From an uncultured Gemmatimonadales bacterium (lineage in GTDB: Bacteria > Gemmatimonadota > Gemmatimonadetes > Gemmatimonadales > GWC2-71-9): a stretch of 64,000 nucleotides of DNA. The notes below the pieces were generated by a model. The model worked only from the letters and a program-made list of their open reading frames with translations. It was not told where the DNA came from and made no database searches. Every line of letters begins with the position of its first letter. Positions within the stretch are counted from its first letter, which is position 1. Positions 51,204 through 60,954 of the stretch are shown here, piece by piece. Location: contig CAVZZO010000001.1 of the NCBI GenBank assembly GCA_963779755.1, positions 1,440,001 through 1,504,000 of the forward strand, read 5' to 3'. A program made the position numbers and the translations under genes.

Positions 51204-51722
51204 TCAGCGGGTGGTGAAGGCGAACACGGCGCCGTAGGTGCCGTTGCCATCGCGCCAGCCGGGGCCAATCTCGCCGCCGCCCATCATCCCACCGCCGCCC
51301 ATCATCCCCTCGGTGGCCCACTGGCCGCCCAGGTGCCGGCAGGCCCAGTCCAGGTCCAGCGGATTGCCGGTCGAGTCCCGCATGCCGCCGCCCAGGTGCA
51401 GGGAGTAGTGCGTTGCCGGCGCCAGCGCGCTATCCTGCATGAAGGTGAGCATGGAATCGCCATGCGACCAGTGCCAGGAGCCGGGAACAACGGGACCGTT
51501 GATGCCGCTCAGGTGTAACGCGGCACTGGCCTCCCCGGCCATCATGGGGCGATCGAAGCGGATGATTACCGGGCGCGTCGGGTCCACGTCCGCGGCGCCG
51601 GCGGCAGGGGTGACGGCGATGACTCGCGCGGCCTCGGAAGTCGGCGCGTTGGCGGACGGGTTGCACGAGACGAAGACGACGCCGGCCAGCACGAGTGTCA
51701 GGAAGGTGGCATATGCGCGCAC
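51204..51722 (-). CDS. Ig-like (Big_5-type) lipoprotein with Met/Gly-rich tail
   Basis: Lipobox-like FVSC; VTPAAGAADVDPTRPVIIRFDRPM...LAPATHYSL; GMMGGGGMMGGG. Confidence 0.7.
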   Translation of the reverse strand: MRAYATFLTLVLAGVVFVSCNPSANAPTSEAARVIAVTPAAGAADVDPTRPVIIRFDRPMMAGEASAALHLSGINGPVVPGSWHWSHGDSMLTFMQDSALAPATHYSLHLGGGMRDSTGNPLDLDWACRHLGGQWATEGMMGGGGMMGGGEIGPGWRDGNGTYGAVFAFTTR

Positions 51723-51778
51723 AGAGCTCTCCAGTCAGGCAGCGGAGGGAAAGGTCGGCGTTACGGCCTGAAGGCTTC

Positions 51779-52426
51779 ATGAAGCCGGACAGAAGGCCAC
51801 TTCATCTGGTGCTGCTTATCCTGGTGGGTCTGGCCGGGTGCGGAGGGGCGGCGACGGGTGGCGGCGCAGCCGCCGGCGCGGCCGACAGCACGGTGCTGGT
51901 CGGCGGCATCGCCGCTTCCGCCCTTCCGGACACGGGCTCGACGGGGGCCCGGCTGGTGGGACGGTACTGCGGCCAGTGCCACGCGGTTCCTTCTCCTGCC
52001 CGTCATGCCGCCGGCGACTGGATTCCCACGTTGCGACGGATGTATCTCCGCATGGACCACATGGCCGCCATGGGCGGCATGATGGCTGGGCGCGGGATGG
52101 GGCGGGGCATGATGGGGCAAGGCCGCACCGTCATCCGCAGCCCCACGCCCGCCGAGCGCGATACCATACTGGCATACCTCCAGGGCCACGCCATGCGCGC
52201 ACTGGCGGAGGACAGCCTGCCCGACGCCGGCGCCGCCGGCGCGGCGATCTTCCGGCGCGCTTGCTCCCGCTGCCACGCGCTGCCCGACCCCGGGCAGCAC
52301 ACCGCGGCGGAGTGGCCGGCCGTGGTGGCCCGGATGCGGGAGCACATGCAGCAGATGAACGTGGGCGACGTCAGCGACGCGGACGCGCAGGCGATCGTCG
52401 CCTACCTCGGCCGTACCGCCGGCTAG
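51779..52426 (+). CDS. Diheme c-type cytochrome lipoprotein with Met-rich linker
   Basis: LAGC lipobox; CGQCH and CSRCH, each followed by P..H.A..W...RM...M; MAAMGGMMAGRGMGRGMMG. Confidence 0.82.
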   Translation: MKPDRRPLHLVLLILVGLAGCGGAATGGGAAAGAADSTVLVGGIAASALPDTGSTGARLVGRYCGQCHAVPSPARHAAGDWIPTLRRMYLRMDHMAAMGGMMAGRGMGRGMMGQGRTVIRSPTPAERDTILAYLQGHAMRALAEDSLPDAGAAGAAIFRRACSRCHALPDPGQHTAAEWPAVVARMREHMQQMNVGDVSDADAQAIVAYLGRTAG

Positions 52427-52662: not shown

Positions 52663-53145
52663 TCAGTGCTGCTGGTACAGGCTGGTCGAGCCGTCCGCCG
52701 CGAACGCGATCACATTGTAGGGGGCCCGCTCGCCGTCCATGCCGGGTGACCCGGCCGGCATGCCGGGAGCCGCGAGTCCGGCCACCGCCGGGTGTTCCCG
52801 CAGGAGCCGGATGATATCCTCCGCCGGCACGTGGCCCTCGATGACATAACCCTTGACCAGCGCAGTGTGGCACGAGGCCAGCTCCTGCGGCACCCCGTGC
52901 TCCCGCATGGCCGCGGCGGGATCGGCGGCTTCCTTCACTTCAACCCTGAACCCGTGCGATTGCAGGTGTGCGACCCACTTCCCGCAGCAGCCGCAGCTGG
53001 GGCTCTTGTACACGACGACCGTCTCGCCGGTCGTCCGGGGGCCCCGCAGGGCCATGACCAGGACGGCCGCCAGAGCCAGGGTCGTTGCGGCGAGCAGCGG
53101 GCGGATCCAGCGGCGGCCGGCGGGCCGCGGTTTCCTTGGGGACAT
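52663..53145 (-). CDS. DUF411 (CopG-like) periplasmic metal-binding protein
   Basis: YKSPSCGCCGKWVAHL, SCHT, EGHVP and PGMPAGSPGM. Confidence 0.9.
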   Translation of the reverse strand: MSPRKPRPAGRRWIRPLLAATTLALAAVLVMALRGPRTTGETVVVYKSPSCGCCGKWVAHLQSHGFRVEVKEAADPAAAMREHGVPQELASCHTALVKGYVIEGHVPAEDIIRLLREHPAVAGLAAPGMPAGSPGMDGERAPYNVIAFAADGSTSLYQQH

Positions 53146-53187: not shown

Positions 53188-53538
53188 CTATTCCAGCGCC
53201 TGGAGCCCGGTCACTCCGGTCCGGATCTTGGTGACTTGCAGTACCGGCTGGACGTAGACGATGCCATCGCCGCGGCGGCCGGTGTGCGCCGTTCGGACCA
53301 GGATCTCGGTGAACATGTCTTCCCGCTCTCGGGCGCAGATAAAGGTCACCTGGGCCTTATCAGTGGATTCCACGGCCTCATCCAGCGAGACCCGGGCGGA
53401 GGCCGGATCCACCCCGGCCCCGATCGCATGCACCCGGCCGACGGTAAGGCGGGGTACTCCGGCCTCCTTGAGCCGGTGGACCACCCGCTCCAGCATCTCA
53501 CGCCGCACGATGGCGTGGATGGCGACCAGTTCCGGCAT
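53188..53538 (-). CDS. PII-like signal protein
   Basis: IHAIVRRE...TGRRGDGIVYVQPV...IRTG (PII B- and C-loop motifs). AGGAGG SD; starts 8 nt after the cusA stop. Confidence 0.82.
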   Translation of the reverse strand: MPELVAIHAIVRREMLERVVHRLKEAGVPRLTVGRVHAIGAGVDPASARVSLDEAVESTDKAQVTFICAREREDMFTEILVRTAHTGRRGDGIVYVQPVLQVTKIRTGVTGLQALE

Positions 53539-53546
53539 GGCTCCTC

Positions 53547-56500
53547 CTAGTCCTCGACCGTGAGCGCCATCTCGTCCCGCAGTGCCTCGCGCACCAGCAG
53601 GTCGGGCCGCCGGGCGACCTGCCGCCGGCGCCAGAGCAGATAGATGGCGGGAATGACCGCGAGGGTGAGCATGGTGGCGGTGAGCATGCCGCCCACCATG
53701 GGGGAGGCGATGCGGCGCATGACGTCCGCCCCCGTGCCCGAGCTCCAGAGAATGGGCGCGAGGCCGGCGATGATGGCGGTGACGGTCATGACCACCGGCC
53801 GCAGCCGCTCCAGCGCGCCGTCCCGCACCGCGGCCGCGACATCGGCCGAGCATTGCATCCGGCCCTCCAGGCTGCGGCGGTGGAAGGCCTCGTCCAGGTA
53901 GATGAGCATCACGACGCCGGTTTCGGCGGCGACGCCGGCCAGGGCGATGAAGCCCACCCAGACCGCCACGCTGGTGTTGTAGCCCAGCGCCCAGAGGAAC
54001 CAGACGCCGCCCACAAGGGAAAACGGCAGCGCCAGCATGACGATGAGCGATTCAGGCACGCTCTTGAAGTTGAAATAGAGCAGCAGGAAGATGATGCCCA
54101 GGGTGACGGGCCCCACGAGCCGCATCTTCCGGGCGACCCGCTGCATGGATTCGTACTGTCCGCTCCAGACCAGGGTGTAGCCGGTGGGTAGCGTCAGCTG
54201 CTGCGCCACCGCCGCCTGCGCGTCCCGTACGTAGCTCCCCACGTCGCGCTCGCCGTTGTCCACGAAAATCGTGGTGACCGGGAAGGCGTTCTCCGTCTTG
54301 ACCGCCATGGGCCCCTGGACGATGCGCACCGCCGCCACCTGGCCCAGCGGGATCTGCCGGCCGCCCATGGCGGGCACCACCACTTCCTTGAGCTTTTCGA
54401 CGTTGTCGCGCAGCTCCCGGGGATACCGGACGTTGACGGCATACCGCTCGCGTCCTTCGACGGTGGTGGCGGCGGTGATGCCCCCGACAGTCGCCATGAT
54501 GGCGTTGTGGATGTCGCCCACGTTGAGTCCGTAACGCGCCGCCTCGGTGCGGTCCACATCGATGTCCACGTAATACCCCGAGACGCCCCGCTCGGCGAAG
54601 GCGCTGCGGGTGCCGGGCACCCGCTGCATGATGCGCTCCACCCGCATGCCCAGCGCCTGCAGCGTGTCGAGGCTGGGGCCGAAGATCTTGATGCCTACCG
54701 GCGTCCGGATCCCGGTCGCGAGCATATCGATGCGCCCCTTGATGGGCATGGTCCAGGCATTGGTGACCCCGGGCATGCGGGTGGCCTCATCCATGGCGGC
54801 CACCAGCTTCTCGTAGGTCATGCCGGCGGGCCACTGATCCTCGGGCTTGAGGGTGATGGTGGTTTCGTACATGTCGAGCGGCGCCGGATCGGTGGCGGTC
54901 GAGGCGCGGCCGGCCTTGCCCAGTACCCGTTCGACTTCGGGGAAGGACGCCAGCACACTGTCCTGGTAGCGCATGATGTCGCGCGCCTGCGCAATCGACA
55001 CGCCGGGCACCGTCGTGGGCATGAAGAGGATGGTGCCCTCATGCAGTTCCGGCATGAATTCGCTTCCCAGCCGACGCCAGGGCAGGATCGTTACCGCCAG
55101 GACCGCTATCGCCGCCAGAATGACCGTCCAGGGCCGCCGCAGGGCGAAGTCGATCACCGGGCGGTAGAGGCGCTGGAGCACGCGGTTCACCGGATTCTCC
55201 CGTTCCGGCCGGATCCGTCCGCGGATGAGATACCCCATCAGCACCGGAACCAGGGTAATGGAGAGAAACGCCGCCCCGGCCATGGCGAAGGTCTTGGTGA
55301 AGGCCAGCGGCTTGAAGAGACGCCCCTCCTGCTGCTCCAGGCTGAAGACCGGCAGGAAGCTGAAGGTGATGATGAGCAGGGAGAAGAACAGCGGCGGCCC
55401 CACCTGCTTGGCGCTCTCCAGGACGATCTCCCAGCGGGAGGTGCCCGGCTCCGCGCGCTCCAGGTGTTTGTGCATGTTCTCGATCATGACGATCGCCGCA
55501 TCCACCATCGCTCCGATGGCGATGGCGATCCCCCCCAGGCTCATGATGTTGGCGTTGACCCCGATGGCGCGCATGACCAGGAACGAGATGAGAATCCCCA
55601 GCGGCAGCGTGATGATCGCCACCAGGGCGGAGCGGAAGTGCAGCAGGAACAGCACGGCCACCGCCGCCACGATCAGCGACTCCTCCACCAGCTTGTCGCG
55701 CAGGGTGTCGATGGCGCGATGGATGAGGTCGCTCCGGTCGTAGGCGGTGACGAGGCGCACCCCATGGGGCAGCCCCTTCTGGATCTCGGCCAGGCGGGCC
55801 TTCACCGCCTCGATGGTCTTGAGGGCGTCGGAGCCGAACCGCATCACCACGATGCCGGCGACGACTTCGCCCTTCCCGTCGAGATCGGCGGCGCCGCGGC
55901 GCGGCGCGGGGCCGACCTGGACGTTGGCCACGTCGGCAACCCGGATGGGCGTGCCGTTCATGGTGGCGCCCACGGTGACGTCTTCGATGTCGGCGACGCC
56001 CTGGAGATAGCCCAGGCCGCGAATCATGTACTCCCGGCCGCCCATCTCCAGCACCCGGGCGCCGATGTCCACGTTGTGCGAGCCGATGGCCTGCGCCACC
56101 CGGGTGACCGGGATGTTGAAGGCGCGGAGCCGTTCCGGGTTCACCTCGACCTGGTACTGCTTCTGGAAGCCGCCCAGGCTGGCGACTTCGGAGACGCCCG
56201 GCACGGCGGTGAGCTGGTAGCGGATATACCAGTCCTGCAGGGTCCGGAGCTGGGCGAGATCCAGGCTGTCGGACTCGAGCACGTACTCGAAGACCCAGCC
56301 CACCCCGGTGGCATCCGGTCCCAATGTCGGTTCCACCCCGGTCGGCAGGGTCTTGCGAATGCCGTTGAGGTATTCCAGGACGCGGCTCCGGGCCCAGTAG
56401 ATGTCGGTGCCGTCTTCGAAGATGACGTACACCAGGCTGAGGCCGAAGAACGAGTAGCCCCGGACCACCCGGGCGCCGGGTACCTTCAGCATCTCGGAGG

Positions 56501-56708
56501 TGATGGGATAGGTGACCTGGTCCTCCACGATGCCCGGAGCCTGCTCGGCGAAGTCGGTCTGGATGATGACCTGCACGTCCGACAGGTCGGGGATGGCGTC
56601 GAGCGGCGTGGTGCGCATGGCCCAGACCCCGCCGGCAATGAGCGCGGCGGTGCCCAGCAGCACCAGGAAGCGGTTGCGCAAGGACCAGGCGATGACGGCG
56701 TTAATCAT
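53547..56708 (-). CDS. cusA: Heavy-metal efflux RND permease, CusA/SilA type
   Basis: DAIPDLSDVQVI, LGPDATGVGWV, IAIGAMVDAAIV; Met-triad-like LFMPT, LDMYET, WTMPIKGRIDM; GVAAETGVVM. Confidence 0.93.
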   Translation of the reverse strand: MINAVIAWSLRNRFLVLLGTAALIAGGVWAMRTTPLDAIPDLSDVQVIIQTDFAEQAPGIVEDQVTYPITSEMLKVPGARVVRGYSFFGLSLVYVIFEDGTDIYWARSRVLEYLNGIRKTLPTGVEPTLGPDATGVGWVFEYVLESDSLDLAQLRTLQDWYIRYQLTAVPGVSEVASLGGFQKQYQVEVNPERLRAFNIPVTRVAQAIGSHNVDIGARVLEMGGREYMIRGLGYLQGVADIEDVTVGATMNGTPIRVADVANVQVGPAPRRGAADLDGKGEVVAGIVVMRFGSDALKTIEAVKARLAEIQKGLPHGVRLVTAYDRSDLIHRAIDTLRDKLVEESLIVAAVAVLFLLHFRSALVAIITLPLGILISFLVMRAIGVNANIMSLGGIAIAIGAMVDAAIVMIENMHKHLERAEPGTSRWEIVLESAKQVGPPLFFSLLIITFSFLPVFSLEQQEGRLFKPLAFTKTFAMAGAAFLSITLVPVLMGYLIRGRIRPERENPVNRVLQRLYRPVIDFALRRPWTVILAAIAVLAVTILPWRRLGSEFMPELHEGTILFMPTTVPGVSIAQARDIMRYQDSVLASFPEVERVLGKAGRASTATDPAPLDMYETTITLKPEDQWPAGMTYEKLVAAMDEATRMPGVTNAWTMPIKGRIDMLATGIRTPVGIKIFGPSLDTLQALGMRVERIMQRVPGTRSAFAERGVSGYYVDIDVDRTEAARYGLNVGDIHNAIMATVGGITAATTVEGRERYAVNVRYPRELRDNVEKLKEVVVPAMGGRQIPLGQVAAVRIVQGPMAVKTENAFPVTTIFVDNGERDVGSYVRDAQAAVAQQLTLPTGYTLVWSGQYESMQRVARKMRLVGPVTLGIIFLLLYFNFKSVPESLIVMLALPFSLVGGVWFLWALGYNTSVAVWVGFIALAGVAAETGVVMLIYLDEAFHRRSLEGRMQCSADVAAAVRDGALERLRPVVMTVTAIIAGLAPILWSSGTGADVMRRIASPMVGGMLTATMLTLAVIPAIYLLWRRRQVARRPDLLVREALRDEMALTVED

Positions 56709-57927
56709 GGGAATGCTCCGCCGGGGCCGAGGGCGTCGAGGGGCTCATGTGCTGCATGCCGGGCATGGAGGCACCGGTGGTTCCCAGCCGGGACTCGGCG
56801 TCCACCAGGAAGTTGGCCGACCCGACGATCGTCTCGCCTTCTTCCAGCCCGCTGAGCACCTGCACCCGGTCTCCACCCCGGGCGCCGAGCACGACCTCCC
56901 GGGGCGAGAGCATGCCGCTGGAGTCGCGCACGAAAACCAGGTTGCGTTCGCCGGTCGCGATGACCGCGGCCATGGGAACCGACGGATACCGCTCGCTCAG
57001 GTCCGAATCGAAGTAGATGGTGGCGAACATACCGGGCTTGAGGCGCAGGTCGCGGTTGGGTACGGTGACCCGGACCCGATTGGTGCGGCTGTGCACGTCC
57101 ACGGTGGGATACACGAAACTCACCCGTCCCATCACGTGTTCCCCGGGATAGGCGGACACCTCGATATGTGCCTGGGTGCCGGTACGAACGAACTTGAGGT
57201 CCTGCTCGAACATCTCGCCTTCCACCCAGACCTCGCGCAGATCGGCAATCTGGTAGAGTTTCTCGCCCGGCATCACCCGCTGCCCCTCGAGCACGCTCTT
57301 CTCCAGGACGATGCCACTCACCGGTGAGACCAGGGTGAGCGTCTTGGTCACCTCGCCGGTGCGCTCCAGGCGGTTGATCTGCGCCGGGGTGATGTCCCAC
57401 CAGGCCAGGCGGCGTCGGGACGACTCCAGGGTGGCCTGGGCCCCGGCCCACGCCTCGCCCGCCGAGCTGTCCACCATGCCGGCCAACCGCTTCGCCGTCA
57501 GGAATTCCTCCTGTGCCGCGACCAGGTCGGGGCTGTAGATAGAGAGGAGCGTCTGGCCCCGCCGCACCGACTCGCCGGTGGTGTTCACGTACAAGTGCTC
57601 GACGTAGCCGGCCACCTTGGGTGTCACGTCGGCGACGTTCTGTTCCGGCGCCAGGATCTCGCCCACCGTGCGGATGGTCCGGGTGAGCGGCTCGCGCTGG
57701 ACCGTGGTGTACGTCACACCCAGCGCCTGCTCCTGCTGGGCGGTGAGATGGACGGCCTGGCGGACGGCGGTGCCGGCGCTATCCATCGCCCCCTGGGTTC
57801 CGCCCGCCTGCATCTTCGCGTGCTCTTCTGCGGTCATCCCCGCCATGGGTGAGGCCTCGTCGGCGGACTTGCCGCAGGCTGCCAGGCCCAGGGCCACCGC
57901 CAGGGCGGCGCTCCAGATCATTCTCAT
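56701..57927 (-). CDS. cusB: RND periplasmic adaptor, CusB type
   Basis: IYSPDLVAAQEE, LYQIADL, LKPGMFA, ANFLVDAES; Met/His-rich termini. Confidence 0.88.
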   Translation of the reverse strand: MRMIWSAALAVALGLAACGKSADEASPMAGMTAEEHAKMQAGGTQGAMDSAGTAVRQAVHLTAQQEQALGVTYTTVQREPLTRTIRTVGEILAPEQNVADVTPKVAGYVEHLYVNTTGESVRRGQTLLSIYSPDLVAAQEEFLTAKRLAGMVDSSAGEAWAGAQATLESSRRRLAWWDITPAQINRLERTGEVTKTLTLVSPVSGIVLEKSVLEGQRVMPGEKLYQIADLREVWVEGEMFEQDLKFVRTGTQAHIEVSAYPGEHVMGRVSFVYPTVDVHSRTNRVRVTVPNRDLRLKPGMFATIYFDSDLSERYPSVPMAAVIATGERNLVFVRDSSGMLSPREVVLGARGGDRVQVLSGLEEGETIVGSANFLVDAESRLGTTGASMPGMQHMSPSTPSAPAEHSHD

Positions 57928-59204
57928 TGGTTCTCTCCTTCAGTGCCCAGCAGGGCCTGGATACGCGCCATGGCCTGCTGCCACGAGGCGGCATAGCGGA
58001 TGGCATCTACTTCGTAGCGGTTCACGGTCAGCTCGTTCTGGATCAGCGTCTGGAAATCCACCCGCCCCACCCGGTAGGCCGAAAGGGCCGATTCTACTGC
58101 CGCGTGCGCCTGGGGCAGGATGGCGGTGCGGTACAGCTCCGCGAGATCGCGCGCCCGCTCCGCCTCCGCCCGCTGCTCGGTCAACTGGGCAAAGGTCTCG
58201 TTGGCCAGATCCTGCGCCATGGCTTCCTCCCCCGCCTGCATGGCCGCCATCTCCCGGCGCAGGGGGAGTTGCCGTTTCCCGGCCCAGATGGGGAGGCTCA
58301 CGCCCACCATGATGCTCACCATGTCGTCGAACTGGGGACGTTGACCGTAGGCAACCGAGACCATCAGGTCGGGGTACAGCGCGCGGCGTGCGGCGCGATA
58401 GCCCGCCCGCGCGGCCTCCACCCGCTCCGACGCGGCCGCCAGGGCGGGCCGCTTGTGCACGGCAATTGCGAACAGGGAATCGCCGGCGGGCAAGGGATCG
58501 CCAGGGGCGGGAAGGAGCAGGGTGCCCACTGGCGCCATGGCATCCCGGCCGAGCTGGGCGTTGAAGCGGGCCGCCATGGCCTGGCGGTCCTGCTGCATCA
58601 CCGTGATGTCCCCGGTCATCCGGGCGATGGCGACCTGGGCCTGGAGTACGTCCTGCTGCAGGCCCTCGCCGGTGGCGTAGCGGCTCTGCGAGACCTTGAA
58701 GAAGTCCCGGAGCAGCTCGCGGGTATCGCCCATGACGGCCAGGGCCCGGTCCATGTAGGCCAGCTCGTAGTAGAGGACGGTCACCCGGCTTTCGAGCTGG
58801 AGCTCCGCCTCATCCGCGCTCAGGCTGCCGGCGCGGGAGAGGTGCGTGGCCCGCTCTCGTGCAAAACCGAGCTTGCCGGGCCAGGGGAAGGTCTGGGACA
58901 GTTCCAGCTGGTCCATGGTCATGGCCTGTCCGGTTCCGAAGCCGTCGAGCGGCCGGTTCATAAGGCCGAGGGAAAGCCGGGGATCGGGGAGTGCCCCGGC
59001 CGGCGAGATGCGCTCCGCGGCGGCCCGGGCCGAGCTGCGCGCGGCCTGGAGCGCGGGATTATTCTCGCGGGCGATCCGAATGGCGTCTTCCAGCCGGAGC
59101 GTATCCGTGCCGGCGCCCTGGGCCTGGGCCCATCCGGGCGCGGCGATCATCATGAGTATCAGGCACAACCACTCCAGCCGGTTGCGCGGCTTCGAACGGG
59201 ACAT
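57924..59204 (-). CDS. TolC family outer-membrane factor (CusC-like role)
   Basis: Signal peptide, ALPDPRL, QTFPWPGK, SAYRVGRVDF; overlaps the cusB start. Confidence 0.88.
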   Translation of the reverse strand: MSRSKPRNRLEWLCLILMMIAAPGWAQAQGAGTDTLRLEDAIRIARENNPALQAARSSARAAAERISPAGALPDPRLSLGLMNRPLDGFGTGQAMTMDQLELSQTFPWPGKLGFARERATHLSRAGSLSADEAELQLESRVTVLYYELAYMDRALAVMGDTRELLRDFFKVSQSRYATGEGLQQDVLQAQVAIARMTGDITVMQQDRQAMAARFNAQLGRDAMAPVGTLLLPAPGDPLPAGDSLFAIAVHKRPALAAASERVEAARAGYRAARRALYPDLMVSVAYGQRPQFDDMVSIMVGVSLPIWAGKRQLPLRREMAAMQAGEEAMAQDLANETFAQLTEQRAEAERARDLAELYRTAILPQAHAAVESALSAYRVGRVDFQTLIQNELTVNRYEVDAIRYAASWQQAMARIQALLGTEGENQ

Positions 59205-59286
59205 ACCTCTCCTGGTCGTTCAATTGTTGGAATCTCCCCGGCGCATCAGAGCCGATGCGTCAGGGTACATGTCAGCTGGGAGAGGT
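59205..59286 (-). promoter_or_regulatory. SD-sequestering mRNA stem between the leader and the TolC gene
   Basis: mRNA ACCUCUCC (59286-59279, starting at the A of the leader UGA) is exactly complementary to GGAGAGGU (59212-59205), which sits directly before the AUG. Confidence 0.6.
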
Positions 59287-59612
59287 CAGACTTCGGGAGG
59301 TGGGAGGAGCGGGGCGGCGGGATCGGCCGGCTGGAACCGGGAGCGTTCCACCGTGGAAATGCGGTGCAGCGGAGTGGCGAAGGACAGCGCGACGACCGGA
59401 TGGATGACGGCTGGGGCCGGCACGCCGCAGACTGCCGGCATGGCGCAGCCGGTTGAGGACGGTACGCCCGGGAGCATTCCCTGCCCATGATCACCCGGCA
59501 GGCTTGCCTGGTGACAGGGTGCAGTGGCCGGCATGTGGCACAAAGCAGGCGCCGCCAGCCAGAACAGCTGGCTGACCAGCAACAGTGCCGACAGATTCCG
59601 GATCAAGCGCAC
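59286..59612 (-). CDS. 108-aa exported Cys/His leader with C-terminal PPP (CutF/CruR/CzcI-like)
   Basis: GTG at 59612 with AAAGGAG SD; hydrophobic N-terminus; CH...CH and CAMPAVC; ends PAAPLLPPPEV. Confidence 0.68.
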   Translation of the reverse strand: MRLIRNLSALLLVSQLFWLAAPALCHMPATAPCHQASLPGDHGQGMLPGVPSSTGCAMPAVCGVPAPAVIHPVVALSFATPLHRISTVERSRFQPADPAAPLLPPPEV

Positions 59613-59707
59613 CTGGGCTCCTTTGACATCCACTCGCCGGACGCTGGAATCTATGTTCCGGCGCGGCACCCCGGCAATCGGGGGCCCGGCATGTCGCAAT
59701 CTGGCCT

Positions 59708-59750
59708 TTGACATTGTCGCTCAACTGAAGAATTTGTGAGCATCTCTTCA
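59708..59750 (+). promoter_or_regulatory. Promoter with ArsR/SmtB-like operator
   Basis: TTGACA at 59708-59713; imperfect 6-2-6 palindrome TGAGCA-TC-TCTTCA at 59737-59750. Confidence 0.4.
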
Positions 59751-59775
59751 CGATTCAGGGAGATGGAGGGCGCTT

Positions 59776-60954
59776 ATGCACTCATCCATGCTCGAGGCCA
59801 TCGGCCGCGCCCTCTCCATGGCCTTCACCATGGGCTGGGAGATTCTCTGGGCGCTGGTTCTGGGATTCACGCTCTCCGGGGTGGTGCAGGCGGTAGTCTC
59901 GAAGCGGGAGATGCGCCGCCTGCTGCCGGACGATTCCCCCCGTTCCCTCCTGCTGGCCACCGGGCTCGGCGCCGCGTCCTCCTCCTGTTCCTATGCGGCC
60001 GTCGCGCTGGCGCGCTCGCTCTTCCGCAAGGGGGCCGATTTCACGGCGGCCATGGCCTTCCAGTTCGCTTCGACCAACCTGGTAATCGAGCTGGGCATCC
60101 TGCTGGCGGTGCTGATGGGGTGGCAGTTCACGCTGGCGGAGGCGGTGGGCGGGCCGCTGATGATCGTGCTGCTGGTGGTGTTCTTCCGGATGTTCCTCTC
60201 GCCCCGGCTGGTGAACGCCGCGCGACAGCAGGCGGAACGCGGGCTGGCGGGGCGGATGGAGGGGCACGCCAAGATGGATATGTCGGTGAAGGGCGGTGGG
60301 TCGCTCTGGCATCGGCTCTGGTCGCCGGAGGGTCGGACGGCCACGAGCCACTATTTCGTGATGGACTGGGCCTCGGTCTGGATGGACATCGCGGGGGGAC
60401 TGCTGATCAGCGGCGCGCTGGCCGCCTGGGTGCCTCACGAATTCTGGCAGGGCTTCTTCCTGAGCGGCCACCCCCTCGTGGCAAAGTTCTGGGGGCCGAT
60501 CATCGGGCCGGTAGTGGCGATCGCCTCATTCGTGTGCTCGGTGGGGAACGTGCCCCTTGCCGCCGTGCTGTGGAACGGCGGAATCAGCTTCGGCGGCGTG
60601 GTGGCGTTCATCTTCGGCGACCTGATCGTGCTGCCCATTCTCAACATCTACCGTAAGTACTATGGCTGGAAAGTGACCGTATTCCTGCTGGGCACCTTCT
60701 ATGTGGCCATGGTCCTGGCGGCGCTTGGCGTCGAGTTCCTGTTCCAGGTGCTCGGCTTGATCCCGGCACACCGGCAGGCGCGGGTGGTGGAAGCAGCGGT
60801 CACCTGGAACTATACCACCTGGCTGAATCTCTCCTTTCTCGCGCTGGCGACGTTGCTGGTGATGCGGTTCCTTCGCACCGGCGGGCCGAAGATGCTGCGG
60901 ATGATGAGCGGGCAGCCCCGGACGGCTCCGGCATCGGGCCAGCCGGAGAAATAA
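59776..60954 (+). CDS. DUF318 (ArsP-like) permease
   Basis: SSSCSYAA, ASTNLVIE and FVCSVGNVPLA; multiple TM helices. Confidence 0.85.
   Translation: MHSSMLEAIGRALSMAFTMGWEILWALVLGFTLSGVVQAVVSKREMRRLLPDDSPRSLLLATGLGAASSSCSYAAVALARSLFRKGADFTAAMAFQFASTNLVIELGILLAVLMGWQFTLAEAVGGPLMIVLLVVFFRMFLSPRLVNAARQQAERGLAGRMEGHAKMDMSVKGGGSLWHRLWSPEGRTATSHYFVMDWASVWMDIAGGLLISGALAAWVPHEFWQGFFLSGHPLVAKFWGPIIGPVVAIASFVCSVGNVPLAAVLWNGGISFGGVVAFIFGDLIVLPILNIYRKYYGWKVTVFLLGTFYVAMVLAALGVEFLFQVLGLIPAHRQARVVEAAVTWNYTTWLNLSFLALATLLVMRFLRTGGPKMLRMMSGQPRTAPASGQPEK

Follow-up and report, generated by a model that had tools for sequence, protein, structure and literature searches.

A candidate CutF-type leader peptide and Shine-Dalgarno switch ahead of a CusCBA-type efflux operon in an uncultured Gemmatimonadales bacterium

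The window analysed here, a stretch of 64,000 nucleotides (nt) from an uncultured Gemmatimonadales bacterium (contig CAVZZO010000001.1, positions 1,440,001 to 1,504,000), carries on its minus strand an operon for a CusCBA-type efflux pump headed by a small open reading frame (ORF) of 108 amino acids (aa). The best reading of this ORF, from comparison of homologous loci, is that it acts in cis as a translated regulatory leader, similar in type to CutF, in an operon of the order leader, outer-membrane efflux protein (OEP), CusB, CusA, P-II, and DUF411. A reading of the DNA made without database searches (the sequence-only reading) had reported an ORF of this length with a signal-like start, Cys/His pairs, and a terminal PLLPPPEV, 81 nt before a TolC gene, and all of this is as stated; the observation itself is confirmed. 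A switch in which translation of the leader governs access to the pump operon's Shine-Dalgarno (SD) sequence is predicted with reasonable confidence, and the architecture as read from the loci (an exported-looking Cys leader, a Pro-Pro-Pro [PPP] tail, and a masked SD) is conserved across 44 of them. Arrest of the ribosome, export of the leader, metal binding, and the sign of the response are what we infer by analogy with characterized leaders.

Translation of the leader from its GTG codon agrees with homologues P0003 to P0005, which start at the same aligned position, and the longer form of 142 aa, counted from the ATG at 59714, probably reflects a gene call that reaches too far upstream. The N-terminal stretch is basic and then hydrophobic (MRLIRNLSALLLVSQLFWLAAPALC), and R5, Q15, L16, P22, and C25 are conserved within it in an alignment of 12 short leaders (A1, which leaves out the window's 142-aa form, P0002, and the long P0008 and P0011). 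Cys25-His26 and Cys33-His34 are followed by Cys56 and Cys62, and the residues C25, C33, C56, C62, P101, and P104 to P106 are invariant in the same alignment, which contains no conserved stretch of 7 to 10 columns. In an AlphaFold2 model built on a 12-row alignment, the sole confident part of the leader is the helix of residues 2 to 25 (predicted local distance difference test [pLDDT] score, 84 to 91); residues 31 to 84 score below 50, with a shallow alignment. A leader in which only the N-terminal helix is confidently predicted is a better fit to a sensor peptide than to a folded chaperone. A basic n-region and a hydrophobic helix are both seen, a cleavage site is not evident from the sequence, and the helix could be a signal anchor.

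The 44 homologous loci that were read all belong to one bacterial family (probably Gemmatimonadota), and their leaders are only 35 to 50% identical. A HMMER search of 1.84 billion representatives returned 13 proteins at an E value of ≤1e-3, with relatives of 104 to 135 aa. Across the phylum, the profile of the 12 short leaders matched in 17/401 genomes, all in the window's own family; counted by family, the same sample gave 16/165 genomes in this family and 0/235 in the other eleven. Within the family, the leader was found in 44/401 genomes and 21/78 genera. Neither Pfam (at an E value of ≤0.1) nor NCBIfam has a family for the leader, a word-index protein search returned only the window's own protein and one relative (65% identity), and searches of metagenome contigs and genome contigs with the single protein and a two-sequence alignment (A4) gave no relatives. 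A protein atlas, which served only as a lead to the phylum, puts the nearest clusters in Gemmatimonadota; the clusters it returned are unnamed ones from Gemmatimonadota and Pseudomonadota, with DUF6660 of Bacteroidota at rank 27. A weak paralogue match (L002) lies in an antisense frame and was dropped. Two loci were not analysed (L019, cut by a contig end and with an internal TGA, and L020, a match with an E value of 9e-4 inside a 777-aa frame), and the partial matches G581 and G488:C335 fall outside the analysed set; L017 and L035, which have no downstream start, were counted in the tails only, and L014 is the same junction as L013. The gene downstream of the leader encodes an OEP in 32 of 38 loci by Pfam scan, with the frameshifted L022 and L023 left out.

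PPP, exactly two residues, and the stop codon close 41 of the 43 readable leader tails, and the two exceptions both keep PP (HPP-RV in L018 and APP-QA in L035). The codons vary between loci (CCA CCT CCC, CCG CCG CCC, CCT CCG CCG, and others) while the residues are kept, so it is the peptide rather than the RNA that is selected. A C-x5-C pair, with a gap of 6, is present in all 43 readable tails, and the distance from it to the first Pro of PPP is 41 to 43 residues in every one (with printed gaps summed by hand where an extra Cys follows the pair), over sequence that is itself poorly conserved. The upstream Cys pair of the family is 6 to 12 residues apart. Directly 3′ of the stop codon, CCTC is found in 34 of the 44 loci.

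In the window itself, 81 nt separate the leader stop from the OEP start codon (ATG at 59204), and the anti-SD ACCUCUCC at the near end of this spacer is the exact complement of the SD region GGAGAGGU at its far end, with which it pairs at a probability of 0.99. The minimum free energy (MFE) fold places a hairpin (CCCUG-A-CGCAUCG...GAUGCG-C-CGGGG) inside, and the anti-SD:SD helix closes the stem; homologues have a hairpin at the same place in the spacer with different stem sequences. When the spacer was shuffled with dinucleotide composition kept, an 8-mer complement arose anywhere in 98/20,000 shuffles and at the stop codon in 5/20,000. For this single sequence, the case that pairing exceeds chance is only moderate, and the decisive evidence is conservation and covariation among homologues. 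Rfam returned no family over 58900 to 59900 at an E value of ≤1. Apart from the helix, the spacer contains a block (59250 to 59272, minus strand; consensus GTAGTGTGCCCTGACGCG, window CATGTACCCTGACGCA) that lies between the anti-SD and the first hairpin and is also present in most loci; its conservation exceeds what pairing accounts for, and a role as a protein site, as a processing site, or as an internal promoter is conceivable.

Several lines of evidence show that the two ends of the spacer are matched locus by locus. Thirty-two loci combine CCTC after the stop with a recognizable downstream start, and in the partition-function folds of all 32 the CCUC is paired with the SD region (probability of ≥0.89; mean, 0.99) in a stem that always closes the whole spacer. 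The majority arms are CCUCUCC/GGAGAGG, and the departures from them are matched: CCUCGCC/GGCGAGG in L007 and L033, CCUCACC/GGUGAGG in L021, GCCUCUCUC/GAGAGAGGC in L038, CCUCGG/CCGAGG in L012, and, with one mismatch, CCUCAUCAC/GUGACGAGG in L010. The pair at the last base of the stop codon also varies, being A-U with TGA and G-U or G-C with TAG. For one representative of each distinct anti-SD 8-mer (n = 11), the duplex with the locus's own SD region averaged −13.1 kcal/mol, versus −10.1 kcal/mol with foreign SD regions, and 0 of 20,000 permutations reached the observed matching. In a MAFFT alignment of 28 spacers (A2; the long spacers of L028, L044, L046, and L047 were left out here and were included in the duplex test and folds), a fixed register had 92.4% of cells paired, compared with 35 to 59% when the partner was slid by 1 to 3 columns, and three of the eight pairs had changed on both sides. 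RNAalifold predicted the closing helix and kept 4 pairs at the base of the inner hairpin in an unfitted MAFFT alignment of 20 closer spacers; it predicted no pairs for the 28-row alignment, owing to gaps in its middle part and to displaced SDs in three rows. Two of the loci, L007 (G004:C82) and L021 (G004:C83), are leader-OEP copies in one genome whose arms differ by a matched change; both pair in a register 4 nt upstream of that of the majority.

The sequence-only reading had described a perfect 8-nt pairing from the stop codon to the TolC SD and a CGCAUC/GAUGCG hairpin in the loop; the exact complementarity is confirmed and the hairpin is present in the MFE fold. It had also named SD/anti-SD covariation and PPP conservation across homologous junctions as checks, and both came out in its favor: complementarity is locus specific by permutation and by slid controls, RNAalifold predicts the closing helix, and PPP is kept as given above. 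The interpretation that it had offered is largely supported as an architecture, which extends over the 44 loci with fixed spacings and agrees with the PPP, two residues, and stop of CutF; the mechanism is a proposal.

CutF of Rhodobacter capsulatus (cutFOG operon) is a leader that is exported, has four Cys, and carries PPP at its C terminus; its copper-prolonged arrest, sensitive to elongation factor P (EF-P), melts a stem in which an anti-SD masks the cutO SD (PMC9973294; 10.1101/2025.02.05.636593). The CutF mechanism also involves action in cis only and a need for export by Sec/SRP. Its tail (P109EPEGPPPRL118) ends in PPP, two residues, and the stop, and 45 residues separate the copper motif from the Pro motif that follows it (PMC9973294). 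The window leader is likewise a small ORF directly upstream of a copper defense gene, with an N-terminal signal-like helix, four Cys in two pairs, a candidate metal motif at a similar distance from PPP (42 residues in the window, ∼42 to 45 in the two systems), the same PPP-plus-two tail, and, in silico, an anti-SD stem masking the following gene's SD across a spacer of <100 nt. It differs in its target, which is the OEP of a CusCBA-type pump rather than a multicopper oxidase, and in its lineage, probably Gemmatimonadota rather than Pseudomonadota, and it is known from sequence alone. The leader family has neither the CxxxC motif of CutF nor the CXXC motif of CruR; it has C-x5-C and the upstream Cys pair.

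The proposed mechanism is as follows. The spacer ends (A/G-CCUCUCC from the last stop base, and GGAGAGGU) would form a closing helix, and since this helix includes the OEP SD, the OEP start would by default be masked; translation of the CusB-like, CusA-like, and P-II-like genes would follow that of the OEP gene by coupling through their stop overlaps. A ribosome lingering as it finishes the leader, either on the invariant PPP (two codons ahead of the stop) or on the stop codon, would keep the 5′ arm in or against its mRNA channel and so free the SD. If, as in CutF, the leader is exported cotranslationally, the C-x5-C would just have emerged on the periplasmic side when the ribosome is at PPP, and Cu(I) or Ag(I) bound to it might change how strongly the nascent chain is pulled and, with that, how long the pause lasts, so that the pump is switched on. 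An EF-P gene is present in the genome.

The geometry depends on where the ribosome stands. A bacterial ribosome covers mRNA to about +15/16 nt from the first P-site base. On that footprint, a ribosome holding Pro105 in the P site and Pro106 in the A site would have the anti-SD start at +15 and would reach only its first one or two bases. Moving Pro106 into the P site (a PPP-Glu/Gln/Asn pause) would put CCUC at +13 to +16, and most of the helix would fall; once the stop codon occupies the A site, the anti-SD arm would be entirely inside the ribosome. The claim of the sequence-only reading that a ribosome paused at PPP covers the anti-SD would therefore hold for the third Pro in the P site or the stop in the A site, and would fail for the second and third Pro in the P and A sites, where the ribosome would only touch it. 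Because the invariant two-codon spacer is shared with CutF, this distance is suggested to matter.

Kinship with CutF is a different question. The sequence-only reading had named CutF and CruR as known leaders of this sort; membership of the window leader in their family, DUF2946 (PF11162; gathering score, 23.7 bits), was not borne out: 0/12 family members match the model at an E value of ≤10, a six-frame search of the window's genome does not match the leader (the best match, 15.3 bits, is elsewhere), and hhalign of the 12 short leaders against six DUF2946 proteins of the same phylum (A5) gives a probability of 0.9% and an E value of 0.061 over the signal helix only. Both profiles are shallow, and the two families may be very distantly related. 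Because there is no detectable similarity, we propose that the leader works like CutF and claim no kinship. Bona fide DUF2946 membership is a property of CruR (Bp2923) of Bordetella pertussis, which has CXXC and RAPP motifs, senses copper through its nascent chain, and controls a TonB-dependent importer; copper relieves its arrest and triggers Rho-dependent termination, so that the switch is turned off (PMC9426467). The window leader shares with CruR a translated upstream ORF with a Cys motif, a Pro-containing C-terminal motif, and downstream genes in cis. SecM, VemP, and MifM, as summarized in the same sources as CutF, are exported or membrane-targeted leaders in which pulling force tunes the arrest and the paused ribosome opens an SD-masking stem (PMC9973294; 10.1101/2025.02.05.636593); unlike CutF-type leaders, they sense secretion or insertion capacity, have other arrest motifs, and lack Cys motifs.

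Several observations weigh against a leader-dependent switch. The 141-nt minus-strand junction fold (−39.2 kcal/mol) has a z score of −0.21, and 75/200 shuffles fold at least as well; the fold that the sequence-only reading had suggested thus yields the expected helix and hairpin, with a stability no better than that of shuffled sequence. The CCUC:GAGG core is invariant, so that the covariation rests on flanking positions; most loci share one sequence, and the 11 anti-SD types are partly related. Conservation of the SD alone could reflect the needs of translation. Ten of the 44 loci lack CCUC after the stop, pairing is weak in L046 to L048 (−8.9 to −11.1 kcal/mol), and L046 and L047 have an AGGA nearer the ATG and outside the helix. 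The closest relatives, L022 (G421:C34) and L023 (G485:C2), have a frameshifted OEP gene. Cys25 lies at the end of the hydrophobic helix, many members have no A-x-A site, and no DUF2946 homology was found by Pfam, six-frame search, or hhalign. To these are added the short reach of a ribosome with Pro105/Pro106 in its P and A sites and the fact that every terminating ribosome would cover the anti-SD, for which reason plain coupling could operate without a regulated pause.

That last point leads to the main rival, which we consider unlikely: the leader would be a genuine Cys-rich protein that handles metal in the periplasm, in a role like that of CzcI or CusF, and would be plainly coupled to the OEP gene, so that terminating ribosomes melt the anti-SD with no arrest or nascent-chain sensing and PPP is a structural or processing signal. 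The position of the anti-SD, which begins at the stop and by this footprint would be fully covered by a terminating ribosome and only abutted by one paused at PPP, suits this explanation, as would four invariant Cys in a metal-binding protein; according to PMC9973294, some CutF-like proteins, CzcI among them, have no Pro motif and may act differently. A structural tail is hard to reconcile with PPP and two residues kept in 41/43 tails through synonymous drift, and a folded metal-handling protein with a C-x5-C-to-PPP spacing fixed over poorly conserved sequence and with low pLDDT over residues 31 to 84 (from a shallow alignment). In addition, the predicted SD partner in a sister clade is the PPP codons themselves in 5/9 loci.

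Control of the CruR kind is less probable still. Here a pause at the Pro tail would shield the RNA from Rho, release of the pause would allow Rho to terminate in the spacer, and the main effect would be transcriptional. CruR, a DUF2946 leader with a RAPP tail, works in this way (PMC9426467), the window's own genome has a RAPP-tailed leader before a second heavy-metal resistance-nodulation-division (RND) operon, and a terminator scan found no intrinsic terminator in the spacer. A spacer of 81 nt with its ends in a closing helix and with inner hairpins would be a poor loading site for Rho; the element that is conserved and covaries is the SD mask; and an efflux pump should be induced by metal, which is the logic of CutF. 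Last, and highly improbable, is the absence of any regulatory function, with C-rich sequence like Pro codons beside a G-rich SD arising as a by-product of high GC content. The fold is no better than shuffles, and ACCTCTCC is not rare in the window (5 occurrences, 2.26 expected). Such a by-product would hardly keep the noncoding CCUC after the stop in 34/44 loci whose leaders are so dissimilar, nor would own arms then outdo all 20,000 permutations and fixed registers the slid controls.

The place of this family among predicted leaders can be judged from rules for CutF-like ORFs given in PMC9973294. The window leader is shorter than the limit of 150 aa, has PP within the last 15 residues (PLLPPPEV; PPP in 41/43 tails and PP in the other two), and precedes an OEP gene at a distance of 81 nt. 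The rules also call for an N-terminal signal peptide, where the window leader shows a basic n-region and a hydrophobic helix that could instead be a signal anchor. OEP genes of RND systems are the commonest downstream neighbors of CutF-like genes in that survey, on bioinformatic grounds only, and its network labels CusD, SilD, and CzcI (Cupriavidus) among the CutF-like ORFs (PMC9973294). The window shares with this set the order of a small Cys/His ORF followed by OEP, membrane-fusion protein, and RND pump genes; the set was collected by jackhmmer from CutF seeds and is mostly from Pseudomonadota and Bacteroidota (PMC9973294). The RND/OEP context, which the sequence-only reading had thought undescribed, is therefore already in print. 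The string "Gemmatimonad" is absent from the main text and three supplements of PMC9973294, and its protein list, File S1, lay outside this search and may include the family; SD/anti-SD covariation and fixed spacings for RND cases were not found in sections of that paper.

The leader family looks like a lineage-specific version of a published switch type that standard DUF2946-based annotation would miss; since the CutF-type design extends past the reach of the DUF2946 model, surveys that depend on this family will undercount such switches. Two-component control by CusRS makes Cus-type pumps a textbook case. Here a nascent exported peptide appears to gate a whole pump operon posttranscriptionally, and the window has no gene of the Trans_reg_C or MerR_1 family. 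Leader gating of RND systems is a published prediction (PMC9973294), and a full-text search of the literature returned no experimental test of such a leader on an RND operon. The family would be a clean test case, having an anti-SD at the stop, invariant spacings, and natural compensatory variants, among them a genome whose two copies are distinguished by a matched G:C-to-A:U change.

A broader interpretation, which we put forward tentatively as a possibility that is more likely wrong than right, is that the family independently invented an exported arrest-peptide metal sensor, or is a branch of one that has diverged past recognition, that its spacings are a molecular ruler, and that it is the only copper/silver sensor of the operon. 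The ruler would run from C-x5-C through 41 to 43 residues, PPP, two codons, and the stop to the anti-SD directly after, and would bring the metal site to the mouth of the translocon on the periplasmic side as the leading edge of the ribosome touches the SD-masking helix. Given that other Pro-tailed leaders precede a second RND operon and a porin gene in the same genome, nascent-chain sensing may be the lineage's general means of envelope metal control.

The features of the locus are collected in Table 1. The OEP gene, a CusB-type adaptor gene, and a CusA/CzcA-family pump gene lie in one operon, the arrangement of a CusCBA-type system. The best solved relative of the pump is Escherichia coli CusA (1150 bits; ZneA, 554 bits), its TIGR00914 score exceeds the cutoff of 701 bits, and Pfam ACR_tran is also matched. 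The DUF411 protein, which we take to be CopG-like, is the last gene of the cluster. A pump that is CusA-like rather than ZneA-like, together with this protein, indicates a context of copper/silver efflux.

Table 1. Coordinates in the window of the leader, the spacer elements, and the pump operon
Feature	Position	Strand	Basis or remark
Leader SD, AAGGAG	59618..59623	-	5 nt before GTG; read from sequence
Leader ORF, 108 aa plus TGA stop	59286..59612	-	GTG start 59612, TGA 59288..59286; translation
N-terminal signal-like or membrane helix, residues 1-25	59538..59612	-	Basic MRLIRN, then hydrophobic, ending P22-A-L-C25
C56-x5-C62 motif, candidate metal-binding site	59427..59447	-	42 residues before first Pro of PPP
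PPP codons CCA CCT CCC, then GAA GTC and TGA	59295..59303	-	Sequence, translation
Anti-SD ACCUCUCC	59279..59286	-	First base is the A (last base) of the UGA stop
Inner spacer hairpin, CCCUG.ACGCAUC-GGCU-CUGAUGCG.CCGGGG region	59236..59265	-	MFE folds
OEP SD region GGAGAGGU, 3′ arm of closing helix	59205..59212	-	Ends 1 nt before ATG
OEP (CusC/TolC-like), 426 aa	57924..59204	-	Pfam OEP, E 3.7e-36
CusB-like membrane-fusion protein	56701..57927	-	Pfam HlyD_D23, E 2.5e-77; start overlaps OEP stop by 4 nt
CusA-type heavy-metal RND pump	53547..56708	-	TIGR00914, 1185.9 bits; start overlaps CusB-like stop by 8 nt
P-II-like small protein	53188..53550	-	Pfam P-II, E 6.5e-12; start overlaps CusA stop by 4 nt
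DUF411 protein with CGCC motif, last gene of cluster	52663..53145	-	Pfam DUF411, E 2.1e-26; PDB 6wis, E 1.9e-28

The statement of the sequence-only reading that no CusRS or CueR gene is in the window holds for the only regulator families searched: none of the nine Trans_reg_C and none of the five MerR_1 matches in the genome falls inside C1:1440001-1504000. A Pfam scan of 14 ORFs at 34.6 to 64 kb of the window also found no regulator. Promoter and terminator scans of 59100 to 59900 returned 0 and 0 sites, and such scans are a weak guide in this phylum. Beyond the operon, an ArsP_1-family permease gene (E value, 1.5e-69; 59776 to 60954, plus strand) is divergent from the leader, and a gene for a protein with two cytochrome c domains (51695 to 52426, plus strand) lies past the DUF411 gene on the opposite strand. 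A search of sequencing runs gave no RNA run matching the stretch and one soil DNA run with 0.24 of the words.

In a sister clade of nine loci, the tails are PPP-IA, -IS, -II, or -RA, plus the HPP-RV of L018, and none of the stops is followed by CCUC. At five of these nine loci the SD is predicted to pair with the PPP codons themselves (CCC CCU CCC versus UGGGAG), so that a ribosome on PPP would be expected to unmask the SD there too; this pairing is weaker evidence because Pro codons are inherently complementary to G-rich SDs. Six sister-clade loci have a downstream gene other than OEP, encoding a 123-aa protein in five and a 95-aa protein in one. The 123-aa proteins (L011, L013, L015, L041, and L049) look secreted, and one has an LTXXQ (CpxP/Spy-like) match with an E value of 2.6e-4, which is below the cutoff.

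A few loci depart from the common arrangement. In L022, the OEP frame breaks after 78 aa and continues in another frame, and in L023 it breaks early; the leader, anti-SD, and SD are intact in both, and the OEP genes are either frameshifted pseudogenes or assembly errors. L035 (G510:C100) has a spacer deleted from just after the conserved GTGTGCC block into the OEP start, with loss of the SD and ATG, and is the sole locus in which PPP has turned into PAPP; judged from the sequence, this looks like joint decay of the leader tail and the OEP start. Extra inserts between the inner hairpins and the SD are found in L025 (G463:C52; ∼13 nt) and L028 (G626:C98; ∼60 nt), and the closing helix is kept in both. 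The insert of L028, which has the inverted repeat GTGCCGTTCCAAC...GTTGGAACGGCAC on its two sides, resembles a small element of mobile or palindromic type. In L017 (G209:C164), the leader tail and CCTCTCC run directly into the interior of an RND pump gene, a junction that is a deletion or an assembly chimera.

Other Pro-tailed ORFs occur in the same genome. The second heavy-metal RND operon (RND gene at C1:377402-380455; TIGR00914, 897 bits) is headed by a small minus-strand ORF (L050; G000:C1:381619-384882) that ends near locus coordinate 1494. This ORF has a start resembling a signal peptide, carries a CHNHAEHC motif, and finishes in QSRAPPAV-stop (RAPP plus two residues). It has a subthreshold DUF2946 match (15.3 bits; E value, 0.087), and an OEP-like gene lies ∼170 nt downstream. 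A genome-wide scan for signal-like ORFs ending in PPP and one to three residues found only one further match, a Cys-bearing ORF of 117 aa (L051:4081-4431, minus strand; G000:C3 near 1307080-1307430) that ends in DPPPPRLA-stop; a gene for a beta-barrel porin (Pfam BBP2; E value, 1.4e-29) lies 100 nt downstream of it. Genuine DUF2946 proteins (L052 to L057) were present in 6/301 genomes sampled from other families of the phylum and in 0/124 from the window's family, so that in the samples searched DUF2946 proteins and PPP-tailed leaders have complementary distributions. These six proteins have CxxC motifs, five of them have SRAPP-type tails, and they are CruR-like.

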